This document shows positions 31,500 to 49,800 of a stretch of 64,000 bases of DNA, piece after piece. The position numbers and the translations under genes were made by a program. Origin of the DNA: a virus; the IMG/VR virus record IMGVR_UViG_3300045996_000987; one strand, given 5' to 3'. The notes under the pieces were generated by a model. That model saw nothing but the letters and a program-made list of their open reading frames with translations, was not told where the DNA came from and ran no database searches. Every line of letters starts with the position of its first letter. Position 1 is the first letter of the stretch.

Positions 31500-31549
31500 G
31501 CGACACCTCGCGGTTACTTGGCGTTGCCTTACTGCCGGTAAGGCGCGGG

Positions 31550-31951
31550 CTACTTGTAGATGATGATGGCGACTTCGCCCCGATCCATCCAGCCGGTCTT
31601 CACCGCCTGAGCGACGCGCCGGAAGACAACCACGCCGACCGGATACCGGATCGCGAAGTAGTCGCCCTCGTCGTGCAGATAGCGGCCCTCGATCGGTGCC
31701 CCATCCGGCCGGGTGTACTCGTTGATGAGGGCGCCGACCCACGGGTTCTTGCCGTTGTGTTGCTTGATGCTGATGTCGTAGACCTTGCCCCGCTCGGGCG
31801 GCTTCTCGGTGGCGCGCTCGTAGGGCTTCGTCCGCGTCAGCTTGTCCAGCAGGTTCTCGGGCATGTCACACTCGTCTTCGCTGAGGTTATTGCCTTCCAT
31901 CGTTGGGCTCACCATCTGGATGAACTCCCCGACCGTGATGCGCTCGGTCAT
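31550..31951 (-). CDS. Hypothetical protein
   Basis: Start MTERITVGE with an AGGAGGAAGGGG RBS. Confidence 0.4.
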   Translation of the reverse strand: MTERITVGEFIQMVSPTMEGNNLSEDECDMPENLLDKLTRTKPYERATEKPPERGKVYDISIKQHNGKNPWVGALINEYTRPDGAPIEGRYLHDEGDYFAIRYPVGVVVFRRVAQAVKTGWMDRGEVAIIIYK

Positions 31952-32235
31952 ACCCCTTCCTCCTCTTCCGGAGCCTCGTGGTAGTGGACCCCAAGCTGCG
32001 GCTCCTTGCAGACTGGGCAGATGTTCGGGCCGCCGTAGTTCGGTTCCTCGGGCACCCACGTCGCGCACACACCCCCCATACCGCGATTGGGGGCGATGCT
32101 CTCGCAGGTGCCATCATCGTTGAGCCGCCACGCGTCGGCCGGTGCGAACTGCACACGCGGCTCGCCGTCGATGTAGTAGACGGTGCGGACGCACTCTTCG
32201 GTCGAGCCGTTCAGCTTGAGTCTGACCTTGGCCAT
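31948..32235 (-). CDS. Zinc-ribbon protein
   Basis: CPVCKEPQ motif. Confidence 0.35.
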   Translation of the reverse strand: MAKVRLKLNGSTEECVRTVYYIDGEPRVQFAPADAWRLNDDGTCESIAPNRGMGGVCATWVPEEPNYGGPNICPVCKEPQLGVHYHEAPEEEEGV

Positions 32236-32648
32236 CAGACGTCCTCGACGGTGATGATGGTGAACGGCCGACCCTCGATCTGCGGGTAGCCGAGGGCGTC
32301 GTTGAGCACGTCGTGCGCGTCGTCCCTGTTCCGCGCCGCGACCGTGAACTCCGCGGCGTCGAACCGATACCGCTCGCTCACGTCCACGGGAGCCACGTCG
32401 CCGTCGCTCAGGACGTCCATGAACTGTCGGCAGTCGTTGTGGGAGCGGAAGCGCACGGTAACCTTGAAGTCTCGCGTGCCTCGCAGATCGAGCGCCGCGT
32501 CGATCGCGTTCAGCGACGACTCGATGCCGTCCGGCACGAAGCCGCCGTTGACGATCCACTGAGTCAGCGCGCAGAGGTGGCGGGCACAGGCCACGTTGTC
32601 CTTGCCCGCCGCCGCCACCGCCTCTTCGAGCGTCTTGTCCGGGTCCAT
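32235..32648 (-). CDS. Hypothetical protein
   Basis: 137-aa ORF. Confidence 0.4.
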   Translation of the reverse strand: MDPDKTLEEAVAAAGKDNVACARHLCALTQWIVNGGFVPDGIESSLNAIDAALDLRGTRDFKVTVRFRSHNDCRQFMDVLSDGDVAPVDVSERYRFDAAEFTVAARNRDDAHDVLNDALGYPQIEGRPFTIITVEDV

Positions 32649-32649
32649 G

Positions 32650-32883
32650 TCAGCCCTCCGAGGTGAACTCGTACCAGAGGTTACTGTGTACGTGGACGAC
32701 GTACTTGTTGCCCTCTTTGTGCTGGAGCTTGGCGAAGTTGTACCTCTCCAGCGCGTTGATCGGCGCCACGTTGGCTGTCGGCACGCCGACGAAGCTGCTG
32801 TCGAGATCGTAGCGCTTCACCTCCTCGGCGTTCGTGAGGACGGCGTTGAAGCGCTTCTTGTGGGAGCGGGGGATCGTTGTCAT
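32650..32883 (-). CDS. Hypothetical protein
   Basis: CAAGTAACCGGAGTGACTGT-ATG upstream. Confidence 0.4.
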   Translation of the reverse strand: MTTIPRSHKKRFNAVLTNAEEVKRYDLDSSFVGVPTANVAPINALERYNFAKLQHKEGNKYVVHVHSNLWYEFTSEG

Positions 32884-32926
32884 ACAGTCACTCCGGTTAC
32901 TTGTTGCTTACTGGCCAGTAAGCGGG

Positions 32927-33688
32927 TCAGGCCGCGCGCCGGGCAGTCGCGATGCGGGCCATCATCTCTTCGCGCCACTCCAGCGCGAAGTCGAGCGAGT
33001 TCTGGAGGTTCGTCTGGTCGTCCGTGCTATGGTACTCCCGGCGAACACGCCGCGCTTGGAAGCTCCACGCGAGGCTGTCGCTCGATGCGAGGAAGGGGGC
33101 CGCACTGATGAGGCCCGTGACCTTGAAGCCGAAGCCGTGCAGCTTGAGCCCATGCGCCTTGAGTGTGCGGATGATGTACTGGCCCGAGAACTCCTGCTGT
33201 CGGCGGCAGACCGTGCCGACCCCGACGAGTGGGTAGGTACGAAGATCCACGCCGGCCGCTGTGTACATGTCGATGTGCCGCTCGTGGTCGCCGTGCATCG
33301 ACCATCCTTGTAGGACCGGGATGAACGGTAGCTCGGGCGCAAGATTGCGGAGACAGAGGAAGTTGTCCACGCTCCTCCGCTGGTGCTCCTCGACCGTGAG
33401 CTTCGTCTTGGCCAGCATGTCAGGCTCGCACATCCAGTCCTGCGGGGCGGCCCATGCCATCTTGCCGATCTCGTCCCGGAATCGGCGCACGAGGCGGACG
33501 TACTCGCGGGGGTCCAGCCGCCACTCCCCATACATCGAGAGTTCGCTGAATCCCCCGCTATCCAAAGCCCATCGGCCGAGCGCCCGAGGGAACGTCTTCC
33601 TCCGTTCCAACTGGCGCCGGCTGATGAACAACGGTACGTCGGTCCTCGCCAGCCACGGGACTACGTGGGTGCCGAGGTAGAACTTCAT
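32927..33688 (-). CDS. dpdA: 7-deazaguanine DNA transglycosylase (TGT family, DpdA-like)
   Basis: ALDSGGFSELSM matches the TGT LTDSGGFQVFSL catalytic segment. Further TGT-like segments FYLGTH, AAPQDWMCEP, IPVLQGWS, PLVGVGTV and SSDSLAWS. Short (253 aa) with no Zn subdomain, as in phage DpdA. Confidence 0.7.
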   Translation of the reverse strand: MKFYLGTHVVPWLARTDVPLFISRRQLERRKTFPRALGRWALDSGGFSELSMYGEWRLDPREYVRLVRRFRDEIGKMAWAAPQDWMCEPDMLAKTKLTVEEHQRRSVDNFLCLRNLAPELPFIPVLQGWSMHGDHERHIDMYTAAGVDLRTYPLVGVGTVCRRQQEFSGQYIIRTLKAHGLKLHGFGFKVTGLISAAPFLASSDSLAWSFQARRVRREYHSTDDQTNLQNSLDFALEWREEMMARIATARRAA

Positions 33689-34320
33689 GCGTCCCCGTGG
33701 TACTTGCAGTCGGGGAAGTCGCAGGCAGGGTCAGCCGGGGCGAACCCGTAAGGGCAGGCGCGCGTGTTGGCGCGAGTCGTGATGAAGTCGTCCATCTGCG
33801 GGTCACTCCCCCGCCCGCAGGCACCGCAGGGCTCGCGCTTGTTGCCCCATCCGGAGCACTCCAAGCAGGCCCCGTTGTCGTACTCCTCCTCGCCGTCGAT
33901 CGCTGCGTCGGTGATAACCTCGACGCCGGGAGCGCCGTGCGCGTTCACCGTGAGCTTGAAGCACACGAAGTCTTCGCTCGTGTCCGGGTTGTCCCGAATC
34001 TCGCGGGCCTTGGCCAGCAGCGCCGCGTCGTTCTCGAACGGTCCCTCCAGTGCGGGCTCGCTGTACTCCAGCCACACGAGGTAGGGCGTGTCCGCGATCC
34101 TCGTGATGGCGTAATGCGGCTCCTCGTCAGCGCTGCTCGCCATGCGGAGCGCCTTCGACTTCTCCGCACAGTCCTCGCAAGCATCGAACTCCATCGGGGC
34201 GGCCCGCTCGTCCGTGCTGCGGAAGTGATAGACCGCGGGCTTGCCGCAGTCCTTGTTCTCTCCGGGGTTGGGCCATCCGCAAGTGCAGATGCGGATGCCT
34301 GCGCCGCTATACTTGGCCAT
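33685..34320 (-). CDS. Cys-rich hypothetical protein
   Basis: Many CxxC pairs (CTCG, CEDC, CLEC, CGAC). Confidence 0.4.
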   Translation of the reverse strand: MAKYSGAGIRICTCGWPNPGENKDCGKPAVYHFRSTDERAAPMEFDACEDCAEKSKALRMASSADEEPHYAITRIADTPYLVWLEYSEPALEGPFENDAALLAKAREIRDNPDTSEDFVCFKLTVNAHGAPGVEVITDAAIDGEEEYDNGACLECSGWGNKREPCGACGRGSDPQMDDFITTRANTRACPYGFAPADPACDFPDCKYHGDA

Positions 34321-34323
34321 CGG

Positions 34324-34614
34324 TTACCTCGCGAAGATGAGCGCCATGTTGCGCGACTTGTTCTCGATGAAGAAGCCGTCCGGTGTCGTCCACGGGGCGG
34401 TCTGCCACGAGCCGCCGTCCCACAGGTACTCGATGCTGCCACCGAAGGGCAGGAACTCGAAGCTCAGGATGTTGACGGCCACGGCGGGTGGGGAAGACAG
34501 TGCCTCCCCCATCCGCTCGCTCACGACGACATCCTCGGCCGTGTACCCGGCTGCCACCACGATCTCGCGCAGGACCGCTGCAAGAGCGTTGGCCACGTCG
34601 AGGCGCGTCATGGT
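34324..34614 (-). CDS. Hypothetical protein
   Basis: Start refined to MTRLDVANAL. Confidence 0.35.
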   Translation of the reverse strand, partial: TMTRLDVANALAAVLREIVVAAGYTAEDVVVSERMGEALSSPPAVAVNILSFEFLPFGGSIEYLWDGGSWQTAPWTTPDGFFIENKSRNMALIFAR

Positions 34615-35006
34615 CAGCCCTTTCGCGCCCGCTTGGCCGACTGCCGGATCTCGTGCTCCGCGACGTCGCTGCGGTTGCGCTCGATCGCCTGCTTGTAGTG
34701 CTTGTTCCACTCGCCGTCCTTCATCGTCGTGACGTTCGTGGAAAGGCCGATGTGGCGCCGCACGTCCTCGAACTCGAAGTACCACGGCTGCGCGTTCTTG
34801 TGCATGAACGCGGTGACGTTGCGCTGCCAGAGGTCGAGGCGGCGCCAGAACTCGTACAGGTTGTCCTCGGTGATGCGGCCGAAGCCGATCACCATCGTGG
34901 CCAGCGTGAGCGCCCACGTCACCGTCGCCCACTCGTCCGGGTTGTGCGGGTCCGTGCAGACCGTCTCGAAGTCCTTGATCTTGCTGTAGTCGAAGTTGAG
35001 CGACAT
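34614..35006 (-). CDS. Hypothetical protein
   Basis: 130-aa ORF; two tandem palindromes directly upstream (35041-35074). Confidence 0.4.
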   Translation of the reverse strand: MSLNFDYSKIKDFETVCTDPHNPDEWATVTWALTLATMVIGFGRITEDNLYEFWRRLDLWQRNVTAFMHKNAQPWYFEFEDVRRHIGLSTNVTTMKDGEWNKHYKQAIERNRSDVAEHEIRQSAKRARKG

Positions 35007-35107
35007 GGCGATACCTTGCGTGCTTGGGTGGTTACCTGTGCCTTACTGGCCAGTAACGTTACTGGCCAGTAAGGCGGGGGTACGTCAACAGCGATGCTGC
35101 GGGTGGT

Positions 35108-35593
35108 TCACGGATAGCTGTCGGCGGCCAGCGCCAACGTGGTCATCTGGTCGTAGATGGCCGAGTTCTCCCAGTTCCCCGTTCGGATCACGACGTCGGC
35201 ACCGTAGATCGAGCGGATCACGGTCGGTGTGTCGTCGGAGCCGTACCACCGCCCCTCGCTCGGGACGTAGATCATCCTGTCGTAACCCTGCACGATCTCG
35301 CGGTAGGGCTTGCCGGGCGCGTACTCCTCATCGAAGTACAACATCACGACGACGATGCCGTGGTCGGGCGTCTGGCCCGGCTGGAGCATGCGACTGGAGA
35401 GCGTGTCGCCGTTGGCGTACCAGAGCCGCCAGCCCACGATGTCGAAGATGCCGTCGCCCTTGACCGGGGTGCTGGCCACCACCGACGCCTGCGGTTGCAC
35501 CCCCGACGCCGGGGTCGGGTCCGTGGGGACGGTGCAGGCCGCGGCGAGGACGAGCGAGAGGAGGAGCGTTGTGGAGCGGAACAGCGTGCGCAT
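35108..35593 (-). CDS. Lipoprotein (LAAC lipobox)
   Basis: MRTLFRSTTLLLSLVLAAAC signal. Confidence 0.5.
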   Translation of the reverse strand: MRTLFRSTTLLLSLVLAAACTVPTDPTPASGVQPQASVVASTPVKGDGIFDIVGWRLWYANGDTLSSRMLQPGQTPDHGIVVVMLYFDEEYAPGKPYREIVQGYDRMIYVPSEGRWYGSDDTPTVIRSIYGADVVIRTGNWENSAIYDQMTTLALAADSYP

Positions 35594-35650
35594 TGCGTGT
35601 CTCCGAAATGGAGGGTGGGTACTACGAGGGAACTGCGGGGTGCTACGGTA

Positions 35651-35830
35651 CTACACGATCGAGCGGGGCGGAATGGGATTGCCGCCCTTGCAGCCCTTCT
35701 TGTGCGGGCGCTCCCAGTCCCCGACGCGCCCTTTGGCCCACTGCCAGCGCGCCCCGCACTCTTCGCACGGCCCCGAGGGAGGGGTGTACGTCGCGTCCTC
35801 GGCCGTGATCGTGGTCGGCTCGTCCATCAC
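35651..35830 (-). CDS. Small zinc-ribbon protein
   Basis: Start MDEPTTI with a GGAGGAG RBS; CEEC motif. Confidence 0.3.
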   Translation of the reverse strand: MMDEPTTITAEDATYTPPSGPCEECGARWQWAKGRVGDWERPHKKGCKGGNPIPPRSIV

Positions 35831-36552
35831 TCCTCCATCGGCCGGACTTCCGCGCCGAAGAGCAGGGCATGGAACCGCCCCTTCTTGAAGTTCTGCTCGA
35901 CGTACCACGCCGGGGGATCGTCGGGCCGGACCTCGACACCGAACCAGTTGTCCGGCGAGTGGACGAAGTACGCGCAGACGACGCCCGTGCCGAGACTGCC
36001 CATCCGGACCCGCTCCCCGACCTTCGGCATCCAGTGCTTCGGGTGGCTCCAGCGCCCGGACTGGCCGTTCGCCTCGTAGATCGCGTGATCGACGTGCTTG
36101 CCGTCCATCAGCGTCGTGCTCGACCCGGTGTGCTCGGCCGGACCCTTGAGGCACAGCCGGTAGTCGCCGGTCTGCGGGATGTAGGCGCTCGCGATCGGCT
36201 TGAAGTAGGCGACGACGTAGAGGTAGCCGTGGCTGGCCTGCGGGTTGGCCAGCACGACGAGGTGCTGATCCTCGTACAGCGTCACCTCCTTGTCCTCGTC
36301 GGTGCGAAGCTCGTACGCCTTGAGCAGCCGCGCCGCCTCGCGCCGCTCGGCGCCGTCCACCTCGGTGTTCAGGTAGTCGAGGAGCCGCTTGCGCTCGTCG
36401 TCGGGTCCGAAGCAGTCCTGCCGGTTGTGCACCTGATCGACGTGCCCGTTCTGCTTCACGATCCAGCGGGCACCCCATGCGGCGATGACGCCAGCGATGA
36501 GGCCGCGGTTGTAGCCGAAGCTCAGGCTGGACTTCTGCGCGGTCGCTTCCAT
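35827..36552 (-). CDS. Hypothetical protein
   Basis: 241-aa ORF. Confidence 0.4.
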   Translation of the reverse strand: MEATAQKSSLSFGYNRGLIAGVIAAWGARWIVKQNGHVDQVHNRQDCFGPDDERKRLLDYLNTEVDGAERREAARLLKAYELRTDEDKEVTLYEDQHLVVLANPQASHGYLYVVAYFKPIASAYIPQTGDYRLCLKGPAEHTGSSTTLMDGKHVDHAIYEANGQSGRWSHPKHWMPKVGERVRMGSLGTGVVCAYFVHSPDNWFGVEVRPDDPPAWYVEQNFKKGRFHALLFGAEVRPMEE

Positions 36553-36573
36553 GTTGGTCACTTGGGTGAGTGG

Positions 36574-36768
36574 TTACTTGGACTGCTCGAACGTGAACGG
36601 ATCGGGGCACGCGTCGTTGGTGCACCCCAAGTCCTCGCCGCTGACCTTGCCGCCACAGCCGGGACACGTCGTGTCGGGCGGGTCGGGGCGGTCGTACTTG
36701 CCGACGCCCATCGCCTCCTCCCACTCCTCGGTGGTCGTGGCGGGCATGTCGTCTCGCGGGTCGTCCAT
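36574..36768 (-). CDS. Small zinc-ribbon protein
   Basis: CPGCGG...C...C motif. Confidence 0.35.
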   Translation of the reverse strand: MDDPRDDMPATTTEEWEEAMGVGKYDRPDPPDTTCPGCGGKVSGEDLGCTNDACPDPFTFEQSK

Positions 36769-36802
36769 GTGGCCTCCTTACTGGCCAGTAAGCGGTGAGC
36801 GC

Positions 36803-37543
36803 TCAGTAGACCGGCACAAGGTTGGCCGGTAGCTTGGGCTCGGGATCACCCTGCTCGATGTCGTCCCGATCGCGGACGATGATGGTGATGTGCGGGGACG
36901 TTGCCTCGGCGCCCTGTACCACGCCGCCGGAGCAGTGAACGACGACGGTGATCTTGTCGGCCGGCGCCTCACTGTCGTCCGTCTCCTCCTCGTCGTCCAC
37001 CGTGACGCCAGCGAGCGCGAGGGCGGCGTCCGCGTCGTCCCCCAAACTGTCGGTGTGCCCGGCATCCATCTGCCGGTACGCGAGCAGAGCCTTGGTCAGA
37101 GCCGCGATGATGGCGTCCTTGTCCCGCCCCTTGAGCGGAATCGGCTCGCCCGACACGTCGTTGGTGGGCGGGTCGAAGCCTTGAAGAATGAAGTCCGACT
37201 GGAAGATCGCGTTGAGCATGGTCTGGAAGCTCACCGCGTCGAACGGCCCGTGGAGTAGGGCGCACACCGCATCGTGCATCAGCCCGCGCATGCGCATGAT
37301 GCTCTCGGCCACCTCCTTGCCGTACACCGGAGCGATGCAGTCCGCCTCACGCTGCCAGTGCTGGCTGAGACGCGGGACCATCGGAGACGCGAGCACGGCC
37401 GCGAGCTTCCGGACGTCGCTCTGCTCCGGGTCGTGTAGGGTGATGCGCGGCTGCGAGAGCAGCATGATGAGTCGGTGAAGTCCCTGCGCCTGCTCCGTGG
37501 TGAGCACGACGGGGCCAGTCGGGGGAAAGTCGGGATGTGACAT
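36803..37543 (-). CDS. Hypothetical protein
   Basis: 246-aa ORF; acidic C-terminal region. Confidence 0.4.
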   Translation of the reverse strand: MSHPDFPPTGPVVLTTEQAQGLHRLIMLLSQPRITLHDPEQSDVRKLAAVLASPMVPRLSQHWQREADCIAPVYGKEVAESIMRMRGLMHDAVCALLHGPFDAVSFQTMLNAIFQSDFILQGFDPPTNDVSGEPIPLKGRDKDAIIAALTKALLAYRQMDAGHTDSLGDDADAALALAGVTVDDEEETDDSEAPADKITVVVHCSGGVVQGAEATSPHITIIVRDRDDIEQGDPEPKLPANLVPVY

Positions 37544-37548
37544 GGTGG

Positions 37549-37818
37549 TTACTTGTGAGTGGCGGCGAACTGGTACCCGTGCACCTCACCGTGGCGCCAG
37601 TGCTGCGTGCCGGTGTAGGGCTCGGGGGCGGGCTTACCCTCGAAGAACGCGCGGGCGCCGTCGAGCCAGCCGAAGGTGTACGCCATCGACTTGTGCTCGC
37701 TGGTGTCATCGAAGTAGGCGCGGAGCTTCTTCGGGTTGACGCGCTTCTGCGTCCCGTCGAGCGTGCGCTTCACCCGCTGCACATACTCCGGGCGAGGATC
37801 GGCCTGTGTCTCGGGCAT
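37549..37818 (-). CDS. Hypothetical protein
   Basis: 89-aa ORF. Confidence 0.4.
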   Translation of the reverse strand: MPETQADPRPEYVQRVKRTLDGTQKRVNPKKLRAYFDDTSEHKSMAYTFGWLDGARAFFEGKPAPEPYTGTQHWRHGEVHGYQFAATHK

Positions 37819-37876
37819 CGGGCGTTACTGGTCGTAAGGTGGGTGCCGGGGCCGAAGCCCCGGCCGTGGTGGGTGA

Positions 37877-38047
37877 CTAGGGGAAGCGGAACATCTGCCG
37901 CAGGATCTTCGGCCCCTGCTCGTTCTTCGGCAGCTTGGCCACCGCCTCGTCCTCCAGCTTCTCGCACTTGCGGCACTTGCCGTACTGTGCGCGTGTCGGC
38001 TTGCCGCAGCCCTTGCAGGGCATCGGCTTTCGGTTGGCGTTGAGCAT
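37877..38047 (-). CDS. Small zinc-ribbon protein
   Basis: CKGCGKP...CRKC motif; start refined to MLNANRK. Confidence 0.35.
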   Translation of the reverse strand: MLNANRKPMPCKGCGKPTRAQYGKCRKCEKLEDEAVAKLPKNEQGPKILRQMFRFP

Positions 38048-38048
38048 G

Positions 38049-38471
38049 TCAGTCGCGGAAGCAGCGCTTGAAGAAGCGGGCGTACGCGGCCTCCTCGCAC
38101 GCCCAGCGGGTCCGCTGGTCGCGATCGGGGACTGTGGCGTCACCGTAGGTGTAGCTCCGGAGCAGGAAGTAGTCGCCGTCCATGAAGTAGTTCTCGTCGG
38201 CGTTGTAGAGCCAGACGATGTACTGCTCCTTGTCGGGGTTCCAGCAGAGGACGACCCACCGATCGACCGTGCGGGACTCGGGGGCCAGATGCTCGGCCTT
38301 CACGACCTCGCAGCCGCGCTCCTCCGCGAGCTTCACCATCGGCTCGGGCAGAGCGAAGACGGCCTGCCGCACCGTCTCCTTGTCGGCGTCGTGATGCGAA
38401 AGGGCGACGAGGGCCGCCGTCCCCTCTGCGAAGAAGAGGCGGATCAGGGCGCCGCGGACACTCGTGGTCAT
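38049..38471 (-). CDS. Hypothetical protein
   Basis: ORF with start likely MTTSVRG. Confidence 0.35.
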   Translation of the reverse strand: MTTSVRGALIRLFFAEGTAALVALSHHDADKETVRQAVFALPEPMVKLAEERGCEVVKAEHLAPESRTVDRWVVLCWNPDKEQYIVWLYNADENYFMDGDYFLLRSYTYGDATVPDRDQRTRWACEEAAYARFFKRCFRD

Positions 38472-38522
38472 GGCAAGCATGTGCGTTACTCTCCAGTAAG
38501 GCTGGATGGTGGATGGGAACTG

Positions 38523-42345: not shown

Positions 42346-42639
42346 TCAGCACCGTCCGGGCGGGTACTCCTTGTCGAAGTCGGCCTTGAGGATGGCCTGC
42401 TCCGTCGCGTCCTCGTTGAACAGCCTCTCGCGGTACGCGGTGACCTCGGCCGGGGACAGCGGGGCCGGCGTGAGTTCATCGCAAAACGCGTTGTGCGTCT
42501 CGTCCGTGGCCACATCCCGCACCTCGTACATCGGCGCGTTCTCGATGTCCACCTCGGACGGGACGGATAGTTCGCGCACTATCTCCACCTCGATGTCCTT
42601 GAGGTGGGGCGCGTCGGAGTCGATCGAAGTGAAGCGCAT
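42346..42639 (-). CDS. Hypothetical acidic protein
   Basis: 97-aa ORF. Confidence 0.4.
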   Translation of the reverse strand: MRFTSIDSDAPHLKDIEVEIVRELSVPSEVDIENAPMYEVRDVATDETHNAFCDELTPAPLSPAEVTAYRERLFNEDATEQAILKADFDKEYPPGRC

Positions 42640-42657
42640 TGTACTAGTGGTTGAGTG

Positions 42658-43077
42658 TTAGCAGCCCATGCGGCGCTCGGACTCCGCGATCAGGTCGGGC
42701 GGCTCGTACTCGGCCACCTGCCGGACCATATCGACCTTGCCCGTGCCGTTGCACGTCGTGCATGTGACGTCGTAGTTACCCGCCATCATGCCCTCGAATG
42801 CCTCGAAGTCCTCTGCGATGTCGCTCGACGTCCAGACGGAGCACGCGGGGTGCACGCGGCGGCCCTCGCCGTTGCAGTCGTCGCAGATGACCCACTCGCG
42901 AATGCCCTTCGAGCGAAGGTGACGGTTGTGCTGGCGGTGGCACGAGGCCGCGGTGCAGATGAGCCGCTTCGTGCCGTGCTCGCAGCGGGTGAGGTAGTCG
43001 TCGTGCTCGCGGTCCTCGTCCTTCTCCGGGGGAAGCTCGTGCTTCTCCCCGCAGTAGAAGCAGTTGGCGTCTGCCAT
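42658..43077 (-). CDS. Cys-rich zinc-finger protein (DnaJ-type CxxCxGxG repeat)
   Basis: CFYCGEKH, CTAASCH, CDDCNGEG and CTTCNGTGKV motifs; start MADANCF. Confidence 0.4.
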   Translation of the reverse strand: MADANCFYCGEKHELPPEKDEDREHDDYLTRCEHGTKRLICTAASCHRQHNRHLRSKGIREWVICDDCNGEGRRVHPACSVWTSSDIAEDFEAFEGMMAGNYDVTCTTCNGTGKVDMVRQVAEYEPPDLIAESERRMGC

Positions 43078-43106
43078 GGGCGTTACTGGCCAGTAAGGGT
43101 GGAGGG

Positions 43107-43478
43107 TCAGATGATCGCGCCCTTCTGCACGAGCCGGGCGATCAGGTCGCACTTCTTCCAGTACGGCATCGCGACGAACTTCTCGCGATTCGCGTCGTTC
43201 AGCTTGCCCGGCTTGCCGTCGCTGCCCAGCAGCATGTCGATGCGGGCATCGTAGAACGTCTCCATCGCCCAGCCGATGCGCTTGCGAAACGCGGACTCGC
43301 TGATGTCCGTGGCCTTGGCCGGAAGGGGCTCACGGTTGTCGCCCCCGCACGAGCGGCACATACCGTACCCATAGTCGAACGGGTACGGCTCCTGCCCAAA
43401 GACCGTGTTCTCGTCGGCGTTGTTGCGCACGCCGCCGCCACAGCAGGAGCAGGATAGGATGTCGTCCACGATGTGCAT
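43107..43478 (-). CDS. Cys-rich hypothetical protein
   Basis: CSCCGGG and CRSCGG motifs; start MHIVDD. Confidence 0.35.
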   Translation of the reverse strand: MHIVDDILSCSCCGGGVRNNADENTVFGQEPYPFDYGYGMCRSCGGDNREPLPAKATDISESAFRKRIGWAMETFYDARIDMLLGSDGKPGKLNDANREKFVAMPYWKKCDLIARLVQKGAII

Positions 43479-43488
43479 GGTGTCTCCG

Positions 43489-43797
43489 TTACTCGCCCGT
43501 AAGGCGGTGAGTGACCGTCTCGACGGTGTGCTTCTGCACACGCACGAGGCAGGCGATGTGGTATGGAATGGAGAGATCGTTGGGTGCGCGGTACGCCGTG
43601 ATGACGGCGCCGGACAGGTACCACTCGCCCGCCTTCGGAGCACGCTTCTCGCCTGTCCACTCGGCTCGGACCTCGGGCCATGCGAGCTTGCTCAGGTCGA
43701 TGCTCAGGGCTGCCCGCTCTTCGCGGGTGACGTAATCGCCCACGGGGTAGGTCGCGCCCCGGCGCAGCTTCTCGGACGCGTCGCTCTGGTGTGCCAT
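43489..43797 (-). CDS. Hypothetical protein
   Basis: Start MAHQSDASEK. Confidence 0.35.
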   Translation of the reverse strand: MAHQSDASEKLRRGATYPVGDYVTREERAALSIDLSKLAWPEVRAEWTGEKRAPKAGEWYLSGAVITAYRAPNDLSIPYHIACLVRVQKHTVETVTHRLTGE

Positions 43798-43826
43798 GGT
43801 CGTTACTGGCCGGTAAGGGTGGGCGA

Positions 43827-44306
43827 TCAGGGAAGGGGACGGATGGGCGTGCGCATCTTGAGGTTGAGCGTGAAGTAGTGCGGCCGGTGCTCCTTGATGA
43901 TGTCGTGCGCGCTGTCCAGCGATGCGGACCACGCGCAGTCACCGCCGTACTCGACGCACACCGCGCAGTCGCACCGGATGTTGCAGTTCCAGCGCCACAC
44001 GGCCCACTGATAGTGCGTGCAGCGCCCGCGCTCGTCGCAGTCGTTCCCGCAGACCGTGCAGAGCTTCGGCAGAGGAACGGCCGTGCAGGACATGACGATG
44101 TGGGCGCCGGAGTGCTGACCGTTGAACTCCCGGTGCTCGGGCTCGTGGTGCATGTGGCAGACGTCCCGTGTGTCCCTCGTGCGAACCTCGCCATTGGCGA
44201 GCGTCCGGAACGTCTCGCGAAGCTCTGCGCGGAACGTGCAGCGGGTGGCAGGGTTGGCGCGGTTGTGCTGGCAGGTGCGGTGCGTTTGGGCAGGCAGCAG
44301 ACGCAT
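43827..44306 (-). CDS. Cys/His-rich hypothetical protein
   Basis: About 14 Cys; start MRLLPAQ with GGAG upstream. Confidence 0.35.
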   Translation of the reverse strand: MRLLPAQTHRTCQHNRANPATRCTFRAELRETFRTLANGEVRTRDTRDVCHMHHEPEHREFNGQHSGAHIVMSCTAVPLPKLCTVCGNDCDERGRCTHYQWAVWRWNCNIRCDCAVCVEYGGDCAWSASLDSAHDIIKEHRPHYFTLNLKMRTPIRPLP

Positions 44307-44412
44307 GGCCGTTCTCCGAAGGAACATGGTGGGGAGCTAGAAGCTAAGGACCGGGACTGTCAGTGCCAGAGGCGTAGCCCTCCCCCAAAGAGGAGGGCAT
44401 GGATGAGATTAC

Positions 44413-44555
44413 GGAGCAGCCGCGACATGGCCGATGGTCGTGCTGATGGACGTGGTGAGGAAGGACGCCGCCTCGGCCGCCATCCAGAGGAAGCCGAGAA
44501 GGAGGATCGCGCGAGAGGCCGCGCAGAGCTTGCGATCGAGCGAGCGGTTCATGGC
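44413..44555 (-). CDS. Small membrane protein (46 aa, below the ORF-track cutoff)
   Basis: ATG immediately after a palindrome copy; hydrophobic ILLLGFLWMAAEAASFL helix; GCCCTCC...GGAGGGC hairpin downstream. Confidence 0.3.
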
Positions 44556-44573
44556 GTTACTGGCCGGTAAGGC

Positions 44574-44984
44574 TCAGTCCTCGATGGGGGTGAGGAAGAA
44601 CCACGCGGCAGCGTCAGCATCGCCGGACGTGGAGGGGGACACCTTGCCTGCGTGGTGGCCGATCGACCAACGGATCTCACCGCACCCATTGATTGAGAGC
44701 AGCATCACCCGCTGCCCGTCCTCGGTCGTCCACGCGTGGCCGTAGGTGCGCATCCAGCCCGTGCCCTGCCGATCCACCGGCACGATGCAGTAGGTGTTCC
44801 CCTGCTTCGACCAGTAGATGCGGCTGGAGTCAGCGCCGGGGTAGAGGCTACCAGCGGGAATCTGGACACGGCCGTCCTGCCGCATGTAGAGGACTTCGCG
44901 CTTGCGCGCCTCGCGCTCACGCTCCGCGGCACGCTGCCTCGCACGCTCCAGCCACGCCTCCACCTTGCCGTTTGCGTCGGTCAT
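44574..44984 (-). CDS. Hypothetical protein
   Basis: Upstream context is palindrome, then CAAGTAACC, then CGTAGGAGG, then ATG. Confidence 0.4.
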   Translation of the reverse strand: MTDANGKVEAWLERARQRAAEREREARKREVLYMRQDGRVQIPAGSLYPGADSSRIYWSKQGNTYCIVPVDRQGTGWMRTYGHAWTTEDGQRVMLLSINGCGEIRWSIGHHAGKVSPSTSGDADAAAWFFLTPIED

Positions 44985-45047
44985 ACGGTTACCTCCTACG
45001 GGTTACTTGGATGGGACACGCAGCCTTACTGGGAGTAAGGCTGACAG

Positions 45048-45134
45048 GGGACGAGGCACGAATCGAACGTGCGCCTCCGCGAGAACACGCATTACTGAGC
45101 GAGTCGCGGCGCTCTGCCACTGAGCTACCCGTCC
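45048..45134 (-). tRNA. tRNA-like gene with oversized (21-23 nt) anticodon loop
   Basis: Minus strand. Acceptor GGACGGG/CTCGTCC, D-arm GCTCAGTGGCAGAGC, T-arm GCACGTTCGATTCGTGC; the anticodon stem CCGCG/CGCGG encloses ACTCGCTCAGTAATGCGTGTTCT. Confidence 0.35.
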
Positions 45135-45140
45135 GATCTA

Positions 45141-45428
45141 CTAGATGGCGACGCCGTGGCTGTAGTCGCACACCGTGACGCCACGGGCGCGCAGCTTGGC
45201 GTCGATGTCGAGGATGTTGTTGCGCATCCTCTCGGTGATGTACGAGTGGACACCGGCCTTGCACGCGGCCACCCAGTCGGCCACGGCGACCTTGCGGGCG
45301 CCCTCCAGCGTGGCCACGGCCAGCCGGTGCTCGCGCTGCTCGGCCGTCTCGGTGGCGAGCTTGCGCTGCGCGACCGACTGCTGCGTGCGGCGGATCATCG
45401 TGGCCATCGCCTTGTCGTTCGTGCGCAT
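45141..45428 (-). CDS. Hypothetical protein
   Basis: 95-aa ORF. Confidence 0.4.
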   Translation of the reverse strand: MRTNDKAMATMIRRTQQSVAQRKLATETAEQREHRLAVATLEGARKVAVADWVAACKAGVHSYITERMRNNILDIDAKLRARGVTVCDYSHGVAI

Positions 45429-45498
45429 GATCGGTTACCTCAAGCGAAGGGTTACTTGGAACGGCGGCCTTACTGGCAGTAAGGCAGGGGTACTGCGA

Positions 45499-45555
45499 TG
45501 GCATGCCGCACGAGTCGAACGTGCGCGGAGTAGTGCTCCGGTCCAGACGCATGCC
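45499..45555 (-). ncRNA. Truncated tRNA-like element (acceptor, anticodon-like hairpin and T-arm; no D-arm)
   Basis: T-arm GCACGTTCGACTCGTGC is nearly identical to the element at 45048-45134; flanked by GGCATGC/GCATGCC. Confidence 0.2.
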
Positions 45556-45605
45556 GCTTGGCTAGAGCATGGTACAGCCCTCCATTAGCTGAGGAACATC
45601 GGGGA

Positions 45606-45938
45606 TCAGGCGCACGGGCGGGAGAACGGCCATGCCGTACCGAAGGGACTCACGCTCGGCTCCGTGGGGAACCAGTCCACGTAGATCGGCTCGACCGTGT
45701 GGATGGTCAGAATCTCGCCCTTCGAGGGAAAACCGATCGTCACGGGGTCGCCCTTGTCGAGATCGCGAAGCTGGCCGTGCGTCAGGCCGACCGCCATGCC
45801 GTGCGGGCCACTGGCGATGAGGGCGAAGACCACGCCGTGCGGATCGTTCTCGTGCCCGATGAACTTGGCCACAGCCGGGGCGACGTGCGCATCGACGCTG
45901 CCGTTCCGCCGCTCGCGGGCAATCAGGATCTTGCTCAT
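45606..45938 (-). CDS. Hypothetical protein
   Basis: 110-aa ORF. Confidence 0.4.
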   Translation of the reverse strand: MSKILIARERRNGSVDAHVAPAVAKFIGHENDPHGVVFALIASGPHGMAVGLTHGQLRDLDKGDPVTIGFPSKGEILTIHTVEPIYVDWFPTEPSVSPFGTAWPFSRPCA

Positions 45939-45982
45939 GGTTACTTGTGGTGAAGGGTTACTTGCCTTACTGCCAGTAAGGA

Positions 45983-46201
45983 TCAGCGGACGACCGTCTC
46001 GAAGAGGATGACGTAGGGACCGCCCTCGAAGTTCACGCGATCCTCGCCAACGCTCACGATGGATAGGTGCTGGTTGATGGCGATGCTATTGACCGTGGCG
46101 TAGAAGCCAGACTCGGCATCGGGACGCGCGGTGTAGTCGCGCTCTTCGGTTTCCATGGAGTCAGAGCCAGTGCGAGCTATGACCCGGTATGCGAGTCGCA
46201 T
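45983..46201 (-). CDS. Hypothetical protein
   Basis: GGAGG RBS; palindrome and CAAGTCACC upstream. Confidence 0.4.
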   Translation of the reverse strand: MRLAYRVIARTGSDSMETEERDYTARPDAESGFYATVNSIAINQHLSIVSVGEDRVNFEGGPYVILFETVVR

Positions 46202-46316
46202 GTGACCTCCTACGGGTGACTTGCCTTACTGCCAGTAAAGGACTGCCATGCGCGCCCACGGCCCGACCCGTGGCGACCTTACTGGCGAGTAAGGCCGAAC
46301 CCATGCGCGCTCCACG

Positions 46317-46556
46317 TCACTTCCGGGACTGACAAGGGCAGGCGCAAATCTTCGCCATCGCCGCGTCAATCTTCGCCTGCTCGTTCCGCTGGAACCGTTC
46401 GAGGTTGTGTGCACCCATGATGAACACGACGTGCCGGGGCGCATGCTTGTGCTGGAGCATGCGGAACTCGGCAAGCTGCGCGTCGATGAGGTCCATCGCG
46501 CAGCCAGTGCAGTCGCGCCACGGCTTCGTGTAGACGGCGATCGGGGCGGAAGCCAT
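46317..46556 (-). CDS. Glutaredoxin/NrdH-like redoxin
   Basis: IAVYTKPWRDCTGC (CxxC) and PRHVVFIMG resemble the Grx fold; start refined to MASAPIA. Confidence 0.4.
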   Translation of the reverse strand: MASAPIAVYTKPWRDCTGCAMDLIDAQLAEFRMLQHKHAPRHVVFIMGAHNLERFQRNEQAKIDAAMAKICACPCQSRK

Positions 46557-46756
46557 TGCTGTCTCCAAGTGAAGGGGAAAGCTTACTGCCAGTAAGGGAC
46601 GGGGAAGTGGGCCGGCGGGCATCGAATCCCGCACACGGGGCTGTTATCGAGCGAGGGGTTGCGTGTGTCCGATCTTCGGCCCAATGCGCGCCCACGGTGC
46701 GAGCCGTGGCAGCCTTACTGGGCAGTAAGGCCGAACCCATGCGCGCGTTCCATCTA

Positions 46757-47077
46757 CTAGGCGATCTGCAAGGCAGCCATGTCAGCCTTGCGACGCTTGG
46801 CGGCGTGGTGGTAGCTGGCCAGACCGCGGACGTGGACCGCCTTGCGCTCGAACTCGATGCGGGCGGCCGTGGCGACCTTGCGGTCGAGGACCATGAGGTA
46901 GACGTACTGCTCGAACTTCGCGGCGCGCTCCGCGATGAACGCCTGCGAGTCGCGGTAGTAGGTGCCGTGGTCGGACGTGCTCACCCACGCCAGATTGGAC
47001 CCCTGCTCGCGAAGATCGGCCGCGATGCGAGCGATGGCGCGACGGATGGCGAGGAAGATGCGGACCTTGCGGATCAT
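46757..47077 (-). CDS. Hypothetical protein
   Basis: Start refined to MIRKVRIF. Confidence 0.35.
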   Translation of the reverse strand: MIRKVRIFLAIRRAIARIAADLREQGSNLAWVSTSDHGTYYRDSQAFIAERAAKFEQYVYLMVLDRKVATAARIEFERKAVHVRGLASYHHAAKRRKADMAALQIA

Positions 47078-47207
47078 GGGACGTTCTCCGGAACATGGTG
47101 ACGTGTGCCTTACTGGCGAGTAAGGCGAGGGGACTGCCATGGCGCGGCGAGGGCGCGACCCCTCGCGACCTTACTGGCAGTAAGGCCGAACCGATCCGCG
47201 CGACCGA

Positions 47208-47480
47208 CTACTCGGAAGGATCGACGTGGCCAAGCGCGACCACGTTGAGCGTGCACACGTCGCGATCGTCAAACTTCCCGTGCGGGTCGATCCGGGCGAT
47301 TTCGTGCTCGGGTTGCGTGAGGCAGTCGAGGAACGCCCGCGGCTCGGAGCCGTAGGTGAACGTGACCGCGAAGCGGCTGACGTCGGCGCGAGCGGCGAGC
47401 ATGCGACGGCCGTCGTGCTGGCCAAGGAAGAAAGCGGCGAAGGCAAGCAGAACGGCGGCGACGGTGGCGATGGCGCGCAT
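47208..47480 (-). CDS. Secreted small protein (signal peptide)
   Basis: MRAIATVAAVLLAFAAFFLG N-terminus. Confidence 0.4.
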   Translation of the reverse strand: MRAIATVAAVLLAFAAFFLGQHDGRRMLAARADVSRFAVTFTYGSEPRAFLDCLTQPEHEIARIDPHGKFDDRDVCTLNVVALGHVDPSE

Positions 47481-47689
47481 GGGACGGACTCCGGAACATG
47501 GTGGACGTTACTGGCCAGTAAGGGACGGCCCTACGGTACTGCAACGTGCGCCGTGCCTGCGAAAGCACGCGGGCGGCACCCCTGCCTTACTGGCCAGTAA
47601 TGCCGCCCGAACCGATGCGCACTGCCGTTCGACTACACTGGCGGACGGGCGCGCACGTCTCGTGCGCGTCCGGCCGGCAGTCACCACAC

Positions 47690-48403
47690 TTACGCGACCG
47701 GCATGGCAGCGACGTTCTTGCCGACCGACGTCAGGACCGCGAGAATGTCCTTGGGAGCCATGCCGTCGCGCACGCCAGCCTTGACCGCATCGGCGAAGAT
47801 CGCCGCCATCTTCACGGCGTCCATCTTGCCCGTCGTGTCCACGGCCGGCGCGTCGGTCGCGGGCGCGTCCACCGTGCCGCCCTTGCCACCCTTGCGCGAC
47901 GGCGCCGCGGCGGCCCATCCCTGCTCGATGGCGTAGAAGCTGCCGACGTTGCCCGTGAAGAAACCGACCGCGGTCGCACTGCCGTTCATGGCGTCGCGGA
48001 CGGCGCGCGTCACCTTGCTGTACCGGACGGTGAGCGAACGGTAGGCGGTCACGACGGCCGCCATGCTCTCCGGGAACGTGTCGCACGCGTTGGCGTCGAA
48101 CCGATCTTCATCGCTCGCGAACGCGTCCCACATCTTGCGCTCGGCCGGCGACAGCTTGGCCAGCAACCCCGCCCGGAGCGCGTCCACCACGGCCGCCCGG
48201 AAGCCGTCCAGCATCTTGCGCTCGCTCCACGTCGCGAGCCCCGCGGCGACGGCCGCGATGTAGAAGGACCGGGCCACGTTGTCCATCTTGCGCCCGGCCG
48301 ACCGGCCCAACGTCGCGATGTCGAGGTTGTCCGCGATGGCGCCCGTGATGAACGCGGCGGCGATGGCGAACGTGACGTTGGCGTTGCTCGTGGTCTTCGA
48401 CAT
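47690..48403 (-). CDS. Hypothetical Ala-rich protein; first gene of the leftward block
   Basis: Start refined to MSKTTSNANV with AAAGGTGACCAAA-ATG upstream. Confidence 0.4.
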   Translation of the reverse strand: MSKTTSNANVTFAIAAAFITGAIADNLDIATLGRSAGRKMDNVARSFYIAAVAAGLATWSERKMLDGFRAAVVDALRAGLLAKLSPAERKMWDAFASDEDRFDANACDTFPESMAAVVTAYRSLTVRYSKVTRAVRDAMNGSATAVGFFTGNVGSFYAIEQGWAAAAPSRKGGKGGTVDAPATDAPAVDTTGKMDAVKMAAIFADAVKAGVRDGMAPKDILAVLTSVGKNVAAMPVA

Positions 48404-48445
48404 TTTGGTCACCTTTGGAAACTGGGTTGAACAGTCGCAAGGCAT

Positions 48446-49800
48446 TCGCTTGCGACACTGGCGCGCATCGCTCCGAAACGATGCGGAACCTTGCTGCCGT
48501 TACTGGCCAGTAAGGACCGAACCTATCGCGCCGTGACGGTCGCCCGTCACTTGGCATGCGTTCCACAATCCCGGCCCGACGCAATCCCTTGTGTTGAGAC
48601 TGCCGGAATCACTGGCGAATTCCCCGTGTCACGCCCTGTCACGGCCCGGATTCATCGCCCGATATTCCACCGCTCTTGCTTCCCGCATACTTGGCCCCAT
48701 GGCGTCCGGCCGTCGCGACGTTTCACAACGTTGCCCGGATTGCGTCCGCCATTGCCTAGACCGCATTCCCCGCGATGCACTCGGCTCGCTCTTGCGGTCA
48801 CTCGCTCCACCCGGCGCCATTCTGGCGAACCTTCCGCCCGCAACCCGCGGGTTGCGTTTGAACCTCTGGCACCTTGCCCGTTTCCCTTCCCGCCCTTTGG
48901 GGTCCACCGTCCGGTCGCATCCTTTCGGGATTCCATCCCCGGCCCCATCGGGCACGGTGGCGGAATCCGTTTCGGCGCTCCGGCGGGGCCGCTTCCCGAT
49001 CCGGGGAAGCGGCACGCCCCATTGGCGCGGTGTGCCTTTCGGCACTATGTCAATCAGCATGTGGTCCGGGGCCGATACGTTGCGCATGCTTGCCGCTTGC
49101 CGCTTGTCGCGCGCCTATCGGAATGCCGTCCGCCATTCTGTGCCGTACCGTGCGCCACACGTTCGCTTGCCGCTTGCCGCTTGTCCGTGTGTCCTACGCA
49201 ACCCGCCCGCTTGCTCGTGCATCGGAGTTGCCGCCGGTACGTGCCGGTCTTCCTTACTGCCGGTAACGTTGCGTTACCGTATCCGACCCGCTTGTGTCGG
49301 TCGCGCCACGCGTTGCGCACCGGCCGGGTTGTCTTTTCTGCCCGCCGCTTTCCTTCCGACCCCTCCGCATAAGCCCTTTTACGAATGCGGCCATTTTCCC
49401 AAACCCCCCATTTGCACCGACTTACAGCGCTCGATTTGCCATGCGCAAAACGCGAATGCCCCCGGTTGCCCCCATCGTCCTCGAAGTAACTGAGGACATC
49501 ACGGGAGTAACCGGGGACAACGTGTAAGTACCCGAGAAGTACAGGCTTAAACTCAGTGAATCCGACGAAAACGACCCCTTACGCACCCCCTTCGCGTACG
49601 TATGGGGTAGCTCTCGATCAACTCATGGCCATCTCTTCGCGCTTCCTATATAGGAAAAGACGGGATCGACGTTGGAGTAGGTGATGGGGGCCGAAAAGGG
49701 TGCGGGGCCGCTGAGGGCAGTGGGCCGAAAGTGTCCTATACGGCGTAATCGAGAGGTATCAGGTACCGAGTACCAAGTAACCGATCCTCAAGTAACCGCT
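48446..49800. promoter_or_regulatory. Non-coding divergent control region between the leftward and rightward gene blocks
   Basis: No credible ORF (only Arg/Pro-rich noise frames). Contains GCTTGCC direct repeats, hairpin CCGCTTCCCG...CGGGGAAGCGG, AT-rich palindrome TTCCTATATAGGAA (about 49641-49654), GGGCCGAAA(A)G direct repeats and promoter-like element A at 49732-49758. Confidence 0.5.
49732..49758 (+). promoter_or_regulatory. Promoter-like element TGTCCT-N13-GAGAGGTA, followed by two CAAGTAACC copies
   Basis: tgtcct(49732-37) and gagaggta(49751-58), then accaagtaacc...tcaagtaaccgctc-GTG. Confidence 0.45.

Follow-up and report, generated by a model that had tools for sequence, protein, structure and literature searches.

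IMG/VR virus record IMGVR_UViG_3300045996_000987 provides a stretch of 64,000 nucleotides, hereafter called the window, which is a piece of a large uncultivated phage. All genes from position 1 to approximately 48,450 lie on the minus strand, and the rightward genes begin at 49,802. The first part of the leftward transcription unit (31,290-48,520, ~17.2 kb) is densely packed, its non-coding share being 11.7%. In the gaps between its genes a short palindrome of the type TTAC-N5/6-GTAA, which we refer to as the dyad, is found repeatedly. In this study, we show that the dyads form an array which is intergenic, restricted to one block and polar, shares its half-site with a start-associated motif and lacks signatures of mobility.

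Through a 437-aa protein (7216-8529) the window could be matched to metagenomic contigs with syntenic replication modules. These contigs, referred to as the syntenic relatives, are up to 152 kb long, and three of them measure ~142-151 kb. The genome of the phage is estimated roughly at 140-150 kb, of which 64 kb are visible.

The dyad array

A preliminary description of the window had reported 30 or more perfect 16-bp palindromes between 31520 and 49280. The array is real, lies at those positions and exceeds chance by far: counted against a shuffled control, the 14-mer TTACTGGCCAGTAA occurs in 10 exact copies, with 0.00 expected from 100 shuffles. The perfection of the copies had been overstated, as only three of the 18 sites with at most two mismatches to the 16-mer are perfect 16-bp palindromes. 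The variants quoted in that description and its example of CCTTACTGGCCAGTAAC followed by ATG at 39161 are present. With the relaxed definition TTAC-N5/6-GTAA, in which the arms TTAC and GTAA are invariant by definition of the search, 32 copies are found between 25,007 and 49,266, together with one doubtful, degenerate site at 63,388. Thirty of the 32 lie within 31.5-49.3 kb and none among the rightward genes; the two in 0-31 kb (25007-25019 and 27835-27847, both 13-bp copies) fall outside the range first given. The leftward block and the copies, in the order of transcription, are as follows.

31290-48445, minus strand: leftward block of ~39 small genes, almost all ORFans
49254-49266: 13-bp dyad, sense TTACCGGCAGTAA, within the 1.3 kb of non-coding sequence between the divergent blocks; another inverted repeat, GGTAAC-N5-GTTACC, overlaps it
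48500-48513: 14-bp dyad TTACTGGCCAGTAA, first copy, in the leader of the leftward block; C after it
47587-47600: 14-bp dyad, upstream member of a two-copy leader module
47508-47521: 14-bp dyad followed by C, downstream member of the 47587 module; ATG (47480) 27 nt on
47171-47183: 13-bp dyad, upstream member of a module; GC-rich hairpin next
47110-47123: 14-bp variant, sense TTACTCGCCAGTAA, downstream member of the 47171 module
46715-46728: 14-bp variant, sense TTACTGCCCAGTAA, upstream member of a module
46583-46595: 13-bp dyad, downstream member of the 46715 module
46279-46292: 14-bp variant, upstream member of a module; surrounding 63 nt 89% identical to the 46715 module
46226-46238: 13-bp dyad, downstream member of the 46279 module; Shine-Dalgarno sequence and ATG follow
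45967-45979: 13-bp dyad; TGA stop 3 nt before, two AAGTAACC motifs and ATG after
45470-45482: 13-bp dyad; tRNA-like element without D-arm upstream
45026-45038: 13-bp dyad, 9 nt past the 3' end of a tRNA gene
44557-44570: 14-bp dyad, sense TTACCGGCCAGTAA, followed by C; ATG 4 nt on, no Shine-Dalgarno sequence
43803-43816: 14-bp dyad followed by C; ATG 5 nt on, no Shine-Dalgarno sequence
43489-43502: 14-bp variant; the upstream gene stops at its TAA
43083-43096: 14-bp dyad followed by C; ATG 5 nt on, no Shine-Dalgarno sequence
42320-42333: 14-bp variant followed by G; AAGTAACC and Shine-Dalgarno sequence downstream
41763-41776: perfect 16-bp palindrome
41171-41183: 13-bp dyad followed by C; ATG 6 nt on
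40587-40600: 14-bp variant followed by C; ATG 6 nt on
39897-39910: 14-bp variant; the upstream gene stops at its TAA, ATG 5 nt on
39163-39176: 14-bp dyad; ATG 1 nt on (the example of the preliminary description)
38486-38499: 14-bp variant with centre GGAG, followed by C; ATG 5 nt on
37825-37837: 13-bp variant followed by C; ATG 6 nt on
36778-36791: perfect 16-bp palindrome; 3' end merges into the Shine-Dalgarno sequence GGAGG
35043-35056 and 35059-35072: two exact 14-bp dyads in tandem, with their centres 16 bp apart
32908-32921: perfect 16-bp palindrome; TGA stop 5 nt before, AAGTAACC and Shine-Dalgarno sequence downstream
31529-31541: 13-bp dyad, final copy of the dense block
27835-27847: outlying 13-bp dyad; GC-rich hairpin next
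25007-25019: outlying 13-bp dyad; ATG 19 nt on

On the transcribed strand the consensus reads g-C-C-TTACTGGCCAGTAA-(G/C)-G-c, and the conserved unit is limited to 14-20 bp. The centre comprises 6 nt in 20/32 copies (14-bp form) and 5 nt in the other 12 (13-bp form); GGCC, itself palindromic, is the commonest. Variation is mostly confined to the central 3-4 nt, where the two forms also differ in length, and to pair 5/10. Mismatches at this pair are, on the sense strand, C.A in four copies, G.A in two and G.U in none, and no covariation between the two arms was found among the copies. The base 5' of the dyad is C in 18/20 copies, while its mirror base is G in 10/20 and C in 10/20. Lone TTACTG or CAGTAA half-sites are rare (five copies only).

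Placement relative to genes

Genes were mapped by third-position GC analysis and their starts then refined. All 29 copies of the block are intergenic (P ~1e-27), which bears out the strict intergenic placement noted at the outset. Twenty-seven lie wholly outside coding sequence; the other two overlap only the last codons and the stop of the upstream gene, with the TAA of the motif as the stop codon. Where neighbouring genes are 10 nt or more apart, 22 of 26 junctions (85%) have one or two copies, as compared to one of the 12 junctions at which genes abut or overlap. The impression that almost every gene boundary carries the motif thus holds for gapped junctions, the overall figure being 23/38, and the gaps, described as 15-60 bp, reach ~200 nt. 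The upstream stop codon is often found 2-12 nt before the dyad or inside the motif. If the dyad is followed by C, so that the right arm reads AGTAAC, an ATG lies within 10 nt in 9/12 copies, usually at 4-6 nt and without a Shine-Dalgarno sequence. If it is followed by G, an ATG is that near in 2/19 copies only, and a separate leader with a Shine-Dalgarno sequence follows.

Two RNA elements lie among the genes of the block. In a tRNA gene (45048-45134, minus strand, 50 bits) the usual 7-nt anticodon loop is replaced by an insert of 23 nt. A tRNA-like fold of 57 nt without D-arm (45499-45555, minus strand, -27.9 kcal/mol) is located between early open reading frames. Each of the two is followed by a dyad.

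The five 5'-proximal junctions (46.2-48.5 kb) have longer composite leaders. Four of them, at 46.2-47.65 kb, show the same order of dyad 1, GC-rich hairpin, dyad 2, Shine-Dalgarno sequence and ATG. Pairing in the GC-rich hairpin is kept through differing sequences, and intergenic identity between modules reaches 89% over 63 nt. No pair of block proteins is similar at E <= 0.01; the flanking ORFans are unrelated, yet bracketed by near-identical intergenic cassettes. An upstream open reading frame of 19 codons (48409-48468, minus strand, MRASVAS...) with a Shine-Dalgarno sequence overlaps the annotated start of the first block gene. Its first codons match the N-terminus (MRAIAT...) of gene 47208-47480; leaders have probably been duplicated.

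These cassettes could be read as recombination boundaries, i.e. as short homologies for the exchange of ORFan cassettes, comparable to the PeSLs of T4-type phages; regulation would then be secondary. Unrelated ORFans each bracketed by the same sequence and the composite hairpin-plus-leader make-up of the 5' modules point in this direction, as do the genes for Rad52-type annealing proteins which adjoin that of a tyrosine integrase in the syntenic relatives. We nevertheless consider this quite unlikely: most copies share 14-20 bp only, which is short for homologous exchange, and neither the polarity nor the fixed relation to start codons would be explained. Integron attC sites and core sites of tyrosine recombinases were also considered and rejected, as the conserved unit is too short and R'/R'' cores are missing.

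A start-associated companion motif

The right arm of the dyad is identical to a motif with the logo C-A-(A/G)-G-T-A-A-C-C, and the left arm is its complement. This companion motif has ~9 informative positions and no conservation beyond them. Its core AGTAAC occurs in 49 copies in the window against 7.2 expected, at least 47 of them in sense orientation relative to the local genes, in the leftward as well as in the rightward block. About two thirds of the copies, as judged by eye, lie within 30 nt upstream of a start codon. Many are located 0-7 nt from the ATG without a Shine-Dalgarno sequence; others are followed by one.

2552-48504, minus strand: sense copies of C-A-(A/G)-GTAACC at leftward genes (AGTAAC, n=35)
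49485-60093, plus strand: sense copies of AGTAAC at rightward genes, with two tandem copies (49776, 49791) shortly before the GTG at 49802
63319-63528, minus strand: half-site cluster with four TTACGT, five GTAACT and one TTAC-N6-GTAA at 63388-63401

Further examples are found at 4852-4857, 8540-8545, 37548-37553 and 50808-50813; in some of them the preceding gene has its TAA stop. The companion motif was also considered as a ribosome-binding signal of the host type, for which no support was obtained; one Gemmatimonadota locus was not enriched in GTAAC.

Clusters of AGTAAC or half-sites without open reading frames occupy two control regions, at 49,485-49,796 and 63,319-63,528. The former belongs to 1.3 kb of non-coding sequence between the divergent blocks (48521-49801), which also contains six CAAGCGG repeats (49,099-49,294), an overlapping pair of inverted repeats (49,254-49,278) and direct repeats of AGTAAC/AGTACC before the first rightward gene. 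The latter lies in a divergent control region of 385 bp and 51.7% GC (63165-63549), upstream of a leftward two-gene operon which ends with an XRE-type gene. This region looks like a complex operator or an iteron-type origin.

Syntenic relatives carry lineage-specific analogous motifs. L176, L179 and L180 have (C)TGTAACTA, often with GGTAACT abutting the ATG, and GTAAC is found in L180 in 30 sense versus three antisense copies. The corresponding motif is GTCACTATA in L178 and GTTAAC/CTAAC in L177 and L181. L177 (1283-17981; GCA_040384045.1 JAWVHH010000191.1, a contig of ~151 kb) contains a 13-bp palindrome of its own, GCTAAC-N-GTTAGC, six times in 21 kb and mostly at gene junctions; a scan of IMG/VR for this palindrome returned single matches only. 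In L181, TTAAC-NN-GTTAAC precedes several starts.

Folding, terminators and promoters

When folded as RNA, dyads followed by C reach -1 to -4 kcal/mol, compared to a background of -3.5 +/- 2.6, and those followed by GG have long, stable stems (-8 to -11.6 kcal/mol). The hairpins are thus marginal in about half of the copies, and sense and antisense energies of the dyads are equal. No intrinsic terminator was detected on the transcribed strand at 18-50 kb, the dyad stems being AU-rich and without T-run; the GC hairpins of the modules at 46-47.6 kb likewise lack U-tracts. It is unlikely that the dyad works through RNA structure alone, as a terminator or stabiliser hairpin, because folding in the presence of C is at background level, the arms do not covary, the mismatches are not of the G.U type and sense and antisense energies do not differ.

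A role at the RNA level, which the preliminary description had also entertained, would put the dyad into a polycistronic early mRNA as a hairpin of 5-9 bp between a stop and the next start. An AGUAAC/UAAGG start signal could then be occluded until a terminating ribosome melts the hairpin. Alternatively, a translational repressor of the RegA or coat-protein type could bind the hairpin, or the latter could mark the transcript for processing or stability together with the tRNA and tRNA-like elements of the block. This would agree with the position of every copy between stop and start on the transcribed strand, with the nearby ATG and missing Shine-Dalgarno sequence in 9/12 of the copies followed by C and with the fact that the variation, including that in length, falls into the would-be loop. 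It would further agree with the stable stems of the copies followed by GG, with the tRNA directly upstream of one copy and the tRNA-like element upstream of another, and with the strand-specific, start-associated companion motif. In the five 5'-proximal modules, moreover, the dyad is part of a larger predicted fold beside the GC hairpin with conserved pairing. On the other hand, about half of the hairpins are marginal, the arms show neither covariation nor G.U mismatches, energies do not distinguish the sense strand, and a palindromic GGCC centre is not needed for a loop. Moreover, half-site clusters lie 150-300 nt from any start codon and no Rfam family matches the dyads. The idea is therefore weakened. 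We retain it as a tentative possibility because the dyad varies between 13 and 14 bp, is polar and has a half-site closely tied to start codons.

The same half-site might be a promoter signal of a phage-specific transcription machinery. C-A-A-GTAACC would be a short promoter element and the dyad two of them back to back, or a hairpin promoter like that of the N4 virion RNA polymerase, giving each early cistron its own start site. Leaderless or short-leader mRNAs would arise where the ATG adjoins the motif, and leaders with a Shine-Dalgarno sequence elsewhere. The clean split between an ATG at 0-7 nt without and at 9-30 nt with a Shine-Dalgarno sequence speaks for this proposal, and so does the orientation along transcription in both blocks, with tandem copies at the head of the rightward block and of the XRE operon. 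Scanning for sigma-70-type promoters yielded no site in 31-50 kb. The relatives have lineage-specific versions (TGTAACTA, GTCACTATA), and GTCACTATA resembles the -7 to -1 part of T7/SP6-type promoters. Nevertheless, we regard a promoter signal as unlikely. There are just ~9 informative positions without extended upstream conservation, the distance to the ATG varies over 0-7 nt, which is incompatible with a fixed start at its A, and no gene for an RNA polymerase or sigma factor was seen among the window proteins. A motif before ~40% of the genes would also be an unusually high promoter density. An extended promoter of the T7 kind was rejected on account of the ~9 informative positions.

The dyad and its half-site might also constitute a phage-specific gene-punctuation code whose reader recognises nucleic-acid hairpins or RNA and which is not an operator in the classical sense. 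Early cistrons could, for instance, each have a hairpin-type or bidirectional mini-promoter, or else an endonuclease mark which releases leaderless or very short-leader mRNAs, tRNA and tRNA-like elements included. The host would possibly be a phylum sparing in its use of Shine-Dalgarno sequences, perhaps Gemmatimonadota. Taken as a whole this proposal is doubtful.

Occurrence elsewhere

The array is specific to the phage of the window. A scan of IMG/VR with the 14-mer gave 74 matches, all single and at chance level. No multi-copy array was found in IMG/VR, in metagenome contigs or in 185,579 GTDB species representatives, where isolated copies or at most a pair occur. Neither a blastn search of the tandem dyad against INPHARED, which returned only a coding-region coincidence in cyanophages, nor a full-text literature search with the motif, which matched no paper, led further.

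High copy number, palindromic sequence and intergenic placement are also features of a selfish miniature mobile repeat or a host-type REP-like element without phage function, and the preliminary description had named target-site duplications as a possible sign of such an origin. They are absent (0-1/32 flank matches at k = 3-5), the unit measures only 14-20 bp, and none of the genomes, viral records and metagenomes scanned is a multi-copy carrier. We regard this origin as highly improbable and essentially exclude it.

On a high-GC bacterial chromosome (JGI Ga0209023_10002383, 10653-10687) two exact copies of TTACTGGCCAGTAA are situated 21 bp apart between a gene for an Lrp/AsnC regulator, whose stop codon is part of the first copy, and a methyl-accepting chemotaxis gene, upstream of the latter. 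A few looser pairs turned up besides. Single 14-mers occur in actinobacterial intergenic stretches which by eye are promoter-like, and some adjoin regulator genes. The chromosomal pair and the promoter-like single copies render the dyad sequence credible as an operator of a helix-turn-helix protein in cells.

At five archaeal loci (Thermoplasmatota, Methanosarcina) TTACTGGCCAGTAA is accompanied by a second site of the TTACTG-NN-CAGTAA type at a distance of exactly 15 bp. The recurrence of the pair may reflect an operator conserved in archaea or a segment of a gene.

A putative operator array

We favour, with a probability of about 0.4, the view that the dyads are operators or roadblocks at which a sequence-specific DNA-binding protein would control the early block. 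The dyad (C)CTTACTG-(G)C-CAGTAAG(G) would be a cis-acting punctuation element of the early ORFan block. It consists of two inverted (C)AGTAA half-sites, the core of which recurs singly and in sense orientation, as C-A-(A/G)-GTAACC, before genes all along the contig. A DNA-binding protein encoded by the phage would recognise the half-site, and two subunits or monomers would sit back to back at the dyads. Acting jointly, the intercistronic sites would switch the early block off or keep it silent, in the manner of stoperators or of the conserved inverted repeats (CIRs) of phiC31. The reader would thus be a protein, its target DNA and its effect repression.

Conservation of sequence rather than of structure on both arms argues for a sequence-specific reader. 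An operator array would also account for the half-site clusters without open reading frames and for the lineage-specific motifs in the relatives, which would result from a co-evolving pair of protein and site. As to the regulon of a dimeric protein put forward originally, invariant arms, missing covariation and half-site clusters agree with it, whereas two centre lengths, polarity and a start-associated right arm do not.

Several findings weigh against an operator array. A rigid symmetric dimer should not tolerate two spacer lengths (12/32 copies with a 5-nt centre). The dyad is polar: C follows it in 10/20 copies and occupies the mirror position in 1/20 (p = 0.003), and how far away the ATG lies can be predicted from the following base (p = 4.6e-4). 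Strict sense orientation and start association of the companion motif fit a signal in RNA or translation equally well. Unlike genome-wide stoperators, the array is limited to the first 17 kb of the leftward transcription unit. Finally, searches against Pfam and PHROGs found no DNA-binding protein among the ~37 block proteins, and the HTH_31 match of the XRE gene is borderline (27 bits with a cut-off of 27).

Two genes had been suggested as sources of the binding protein. The XRE gene (61599-62384), a candidate with a borderline match, has a circumstantial link in that the half-site cluster at 63,319-63,528 and the degenerate dyad lie upstream of its operon, which contains the only helix-turn-helix gene found. 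It encodes the one HTH_31 protein obtained when ~80 proteins of the window, which covers 64 kb of a larger genome, were compared with Pfam and/or PHROGs. The first leftward gene (47690-48445) shows no detectable DNA-binding domain. Searches of the block proteins and of these two candidates against Pfam, PHROGs and PDB sequences were uninformative. In the relatives, ParB_N genes are located ~1.5-2 kb downstream of the ribonucleotide reductase gene, a position which in the window would lie off its left end.

Comparison with known systems

The phiC31 CIRs and the sites of ParB-family proteins (parS, Noc NBS, KorB OB) are multi-copy palindromes of 13-17 bp at which one dimeric protein acts on many transcription units. 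Their cognate proteins are known; for the window, a ParB-like gene such as the ParB_N genes of the relatives would lie beyond the left end.

Cluster O mycobacteriophages carry a 17-bp palindromic repeat, TGTTCGGNNNCCGAACA, of unknown function (PMC4351075). It resembles the dyad in its more than 30 copies per genome, its invariant arms and variable centre, and the location of many copies in short gaps of leftward non-structural operons. In contrast to the window, the spacer of the Cluster O repeat is fixed at 3 bp, its copies are distributed genome-wide, 10/34 of them well inside open reading frames, and it shows neither polarity nor a linked start-associated half-site (PMC4351075); the array described here has two spacer lengths, no copy inside coding sequence, a single block of 17 kb, polar flanks and an unrelated sequence. 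The 18-bp inverted repeat GATCAACCNNGGTTGATC of Microbacterium Cluster EG phages (PMC7302621) is likewise a start-associated palindrome in short gaps of one non-structural arm, conserved while the flanking genes diverge. It differs in having 8-10 copies only, a regular distance of 14-22 bp from the start and a fixed spacer (PMC7302621). Neither sequence homology nor phage relatedness to Clusters O or EG was found.

Start-associated sequences (SAS) and their extended form (ESAS) are known from Cluster K mycobacteriophages and Microbacterium Cluster EF (PMC3203893, PMC7302621). As with the companion motif, an asymmetric sense motif with lineage-specific consensus is found a few nucleotides before the ATG of non-structural genes, and in a subset of genes an inverted repeat is placed directly upstream of it. 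In Cluster K, however, the SAS includes the full Shine-Dalgarno core GGGATAGGAGCCC, and the ESAS arms are 17 bp long, imperfect and 4-13 bp apart (PMC3203893). The window has an AT-rich start motif and a compact 13/14-bp palindrome, one arm of which is the start motif itself.

In Cluster A and CA actinophages, a repressor silences entire operons by way of stoperators (PMC9283540, PMC6550527, PMC13313380). Common to them and the window are at least 25 short sites in gaps or overlapping gene termini, and the companion motif shares their orientation along transcription. They are, however, asymmetric, 13-14 bp long, genome-wide and bound by a monomeric two-domain repressor (PMC9283540, PMC6550527, PMC13313380), whereas the dyad is confined to one block, and orientation is seen only in its +1 flank and in the 9-nt companion motif. 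No such repressor (gp71 type) was found among the ~80 window proteins compared. The original comparison with stoperators and with the ESAS of Cluster K is thus apt as an analogy and does not extend to membership.

PeSL promoter/terminator cassettes of T4-type phages, for which genome comparison has shown a role in indels (PMC2839356, PMC4122927), are also conserved composite intergenic cassettes which bracket unrelated ORFans in an early hyperplastic region. They consist of a sigma-70 early promoter and a terminator stem-loop; in the window no promoter or U-tract terminator was detected. The array resembles the systems of Clusters O, EG, K/EF and A and the PeSLs, yet fails defining features of each, and it shares no sequence or phage ancestry with any of the systems compared.

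Arrays of intergenic palindromes or start-associated motifs have been known from several actinophage clusters since 2011-2015, with a known mechanism for stoperators only. The present array is denser than the known examples, as 31 copies fall within 18 kb and 85% of gapped junctions are covered; it is also strictly intergenic. It physically links two phenomena, as the palindrome is built from a start-associated half-site and one flanking base decides on the role of the arm as a start signal. Any mechanism must for this reason explain a strand-specific single site as well as a symmetric double site.

Lineage, host and further window content

The element belongs to a previously undescribed lineage of phages of ~140-150 kb with tRNAs and transfer-messenger RNA (tmRNA). 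No relatives were found in INPHARED or IMG/VR, and there is no nucleotide or protein similarity to isolated phages except for a stretch of 98 nt in the DpdA gene. This gene (32927-33688) and one for a DUF7007 protein gave the only family matches of the block in Pfam and PHROGs. A link of the dyads to the 7-deazaguanine system of DpdA was considered; no evidence for it emerged.

Elsewhere the window encodes a ribonucleotide reductase, a large serine recombinase, a tyrosine integrase, a clamp loader, a DnaN-like clamp, a 5'-3' exonuclease and endonuclease VII/HNH proteins; structural genes were not identified among the proteins scanned. The DnaN-like clamp (25093-26268, minus strand) is closest to chromosomal DnaN of Gemmatimonadota (Longimicrobiaceae, Gemmatimonadales; 38-41% identity), and the homologue search returned no close DnaN from the syntenic relatives. 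This suggests that the clamp gene is derived from the host and that Gemmatimonadota are a possible host phylum. The lineage may thus infect Gemmatimonadota rather than actinobacteria.

Of the five tRNAs of the window, one is that of the early block. The other four (Lys, Glu, Tyr, Leu) are clustered at 54951-56359 (plus strand) together with a bona fide tmRNA, which is full-length (Rfam 69.9 bits) and has an odd predicted tag peptide. The ribonucleotide reductase gene of the window (3-2537) is not interrupted by an intein; those of L176 (14677-18576) and L178 (8396-13795) are split by inteins with LAGLIDADG or HNH domains.

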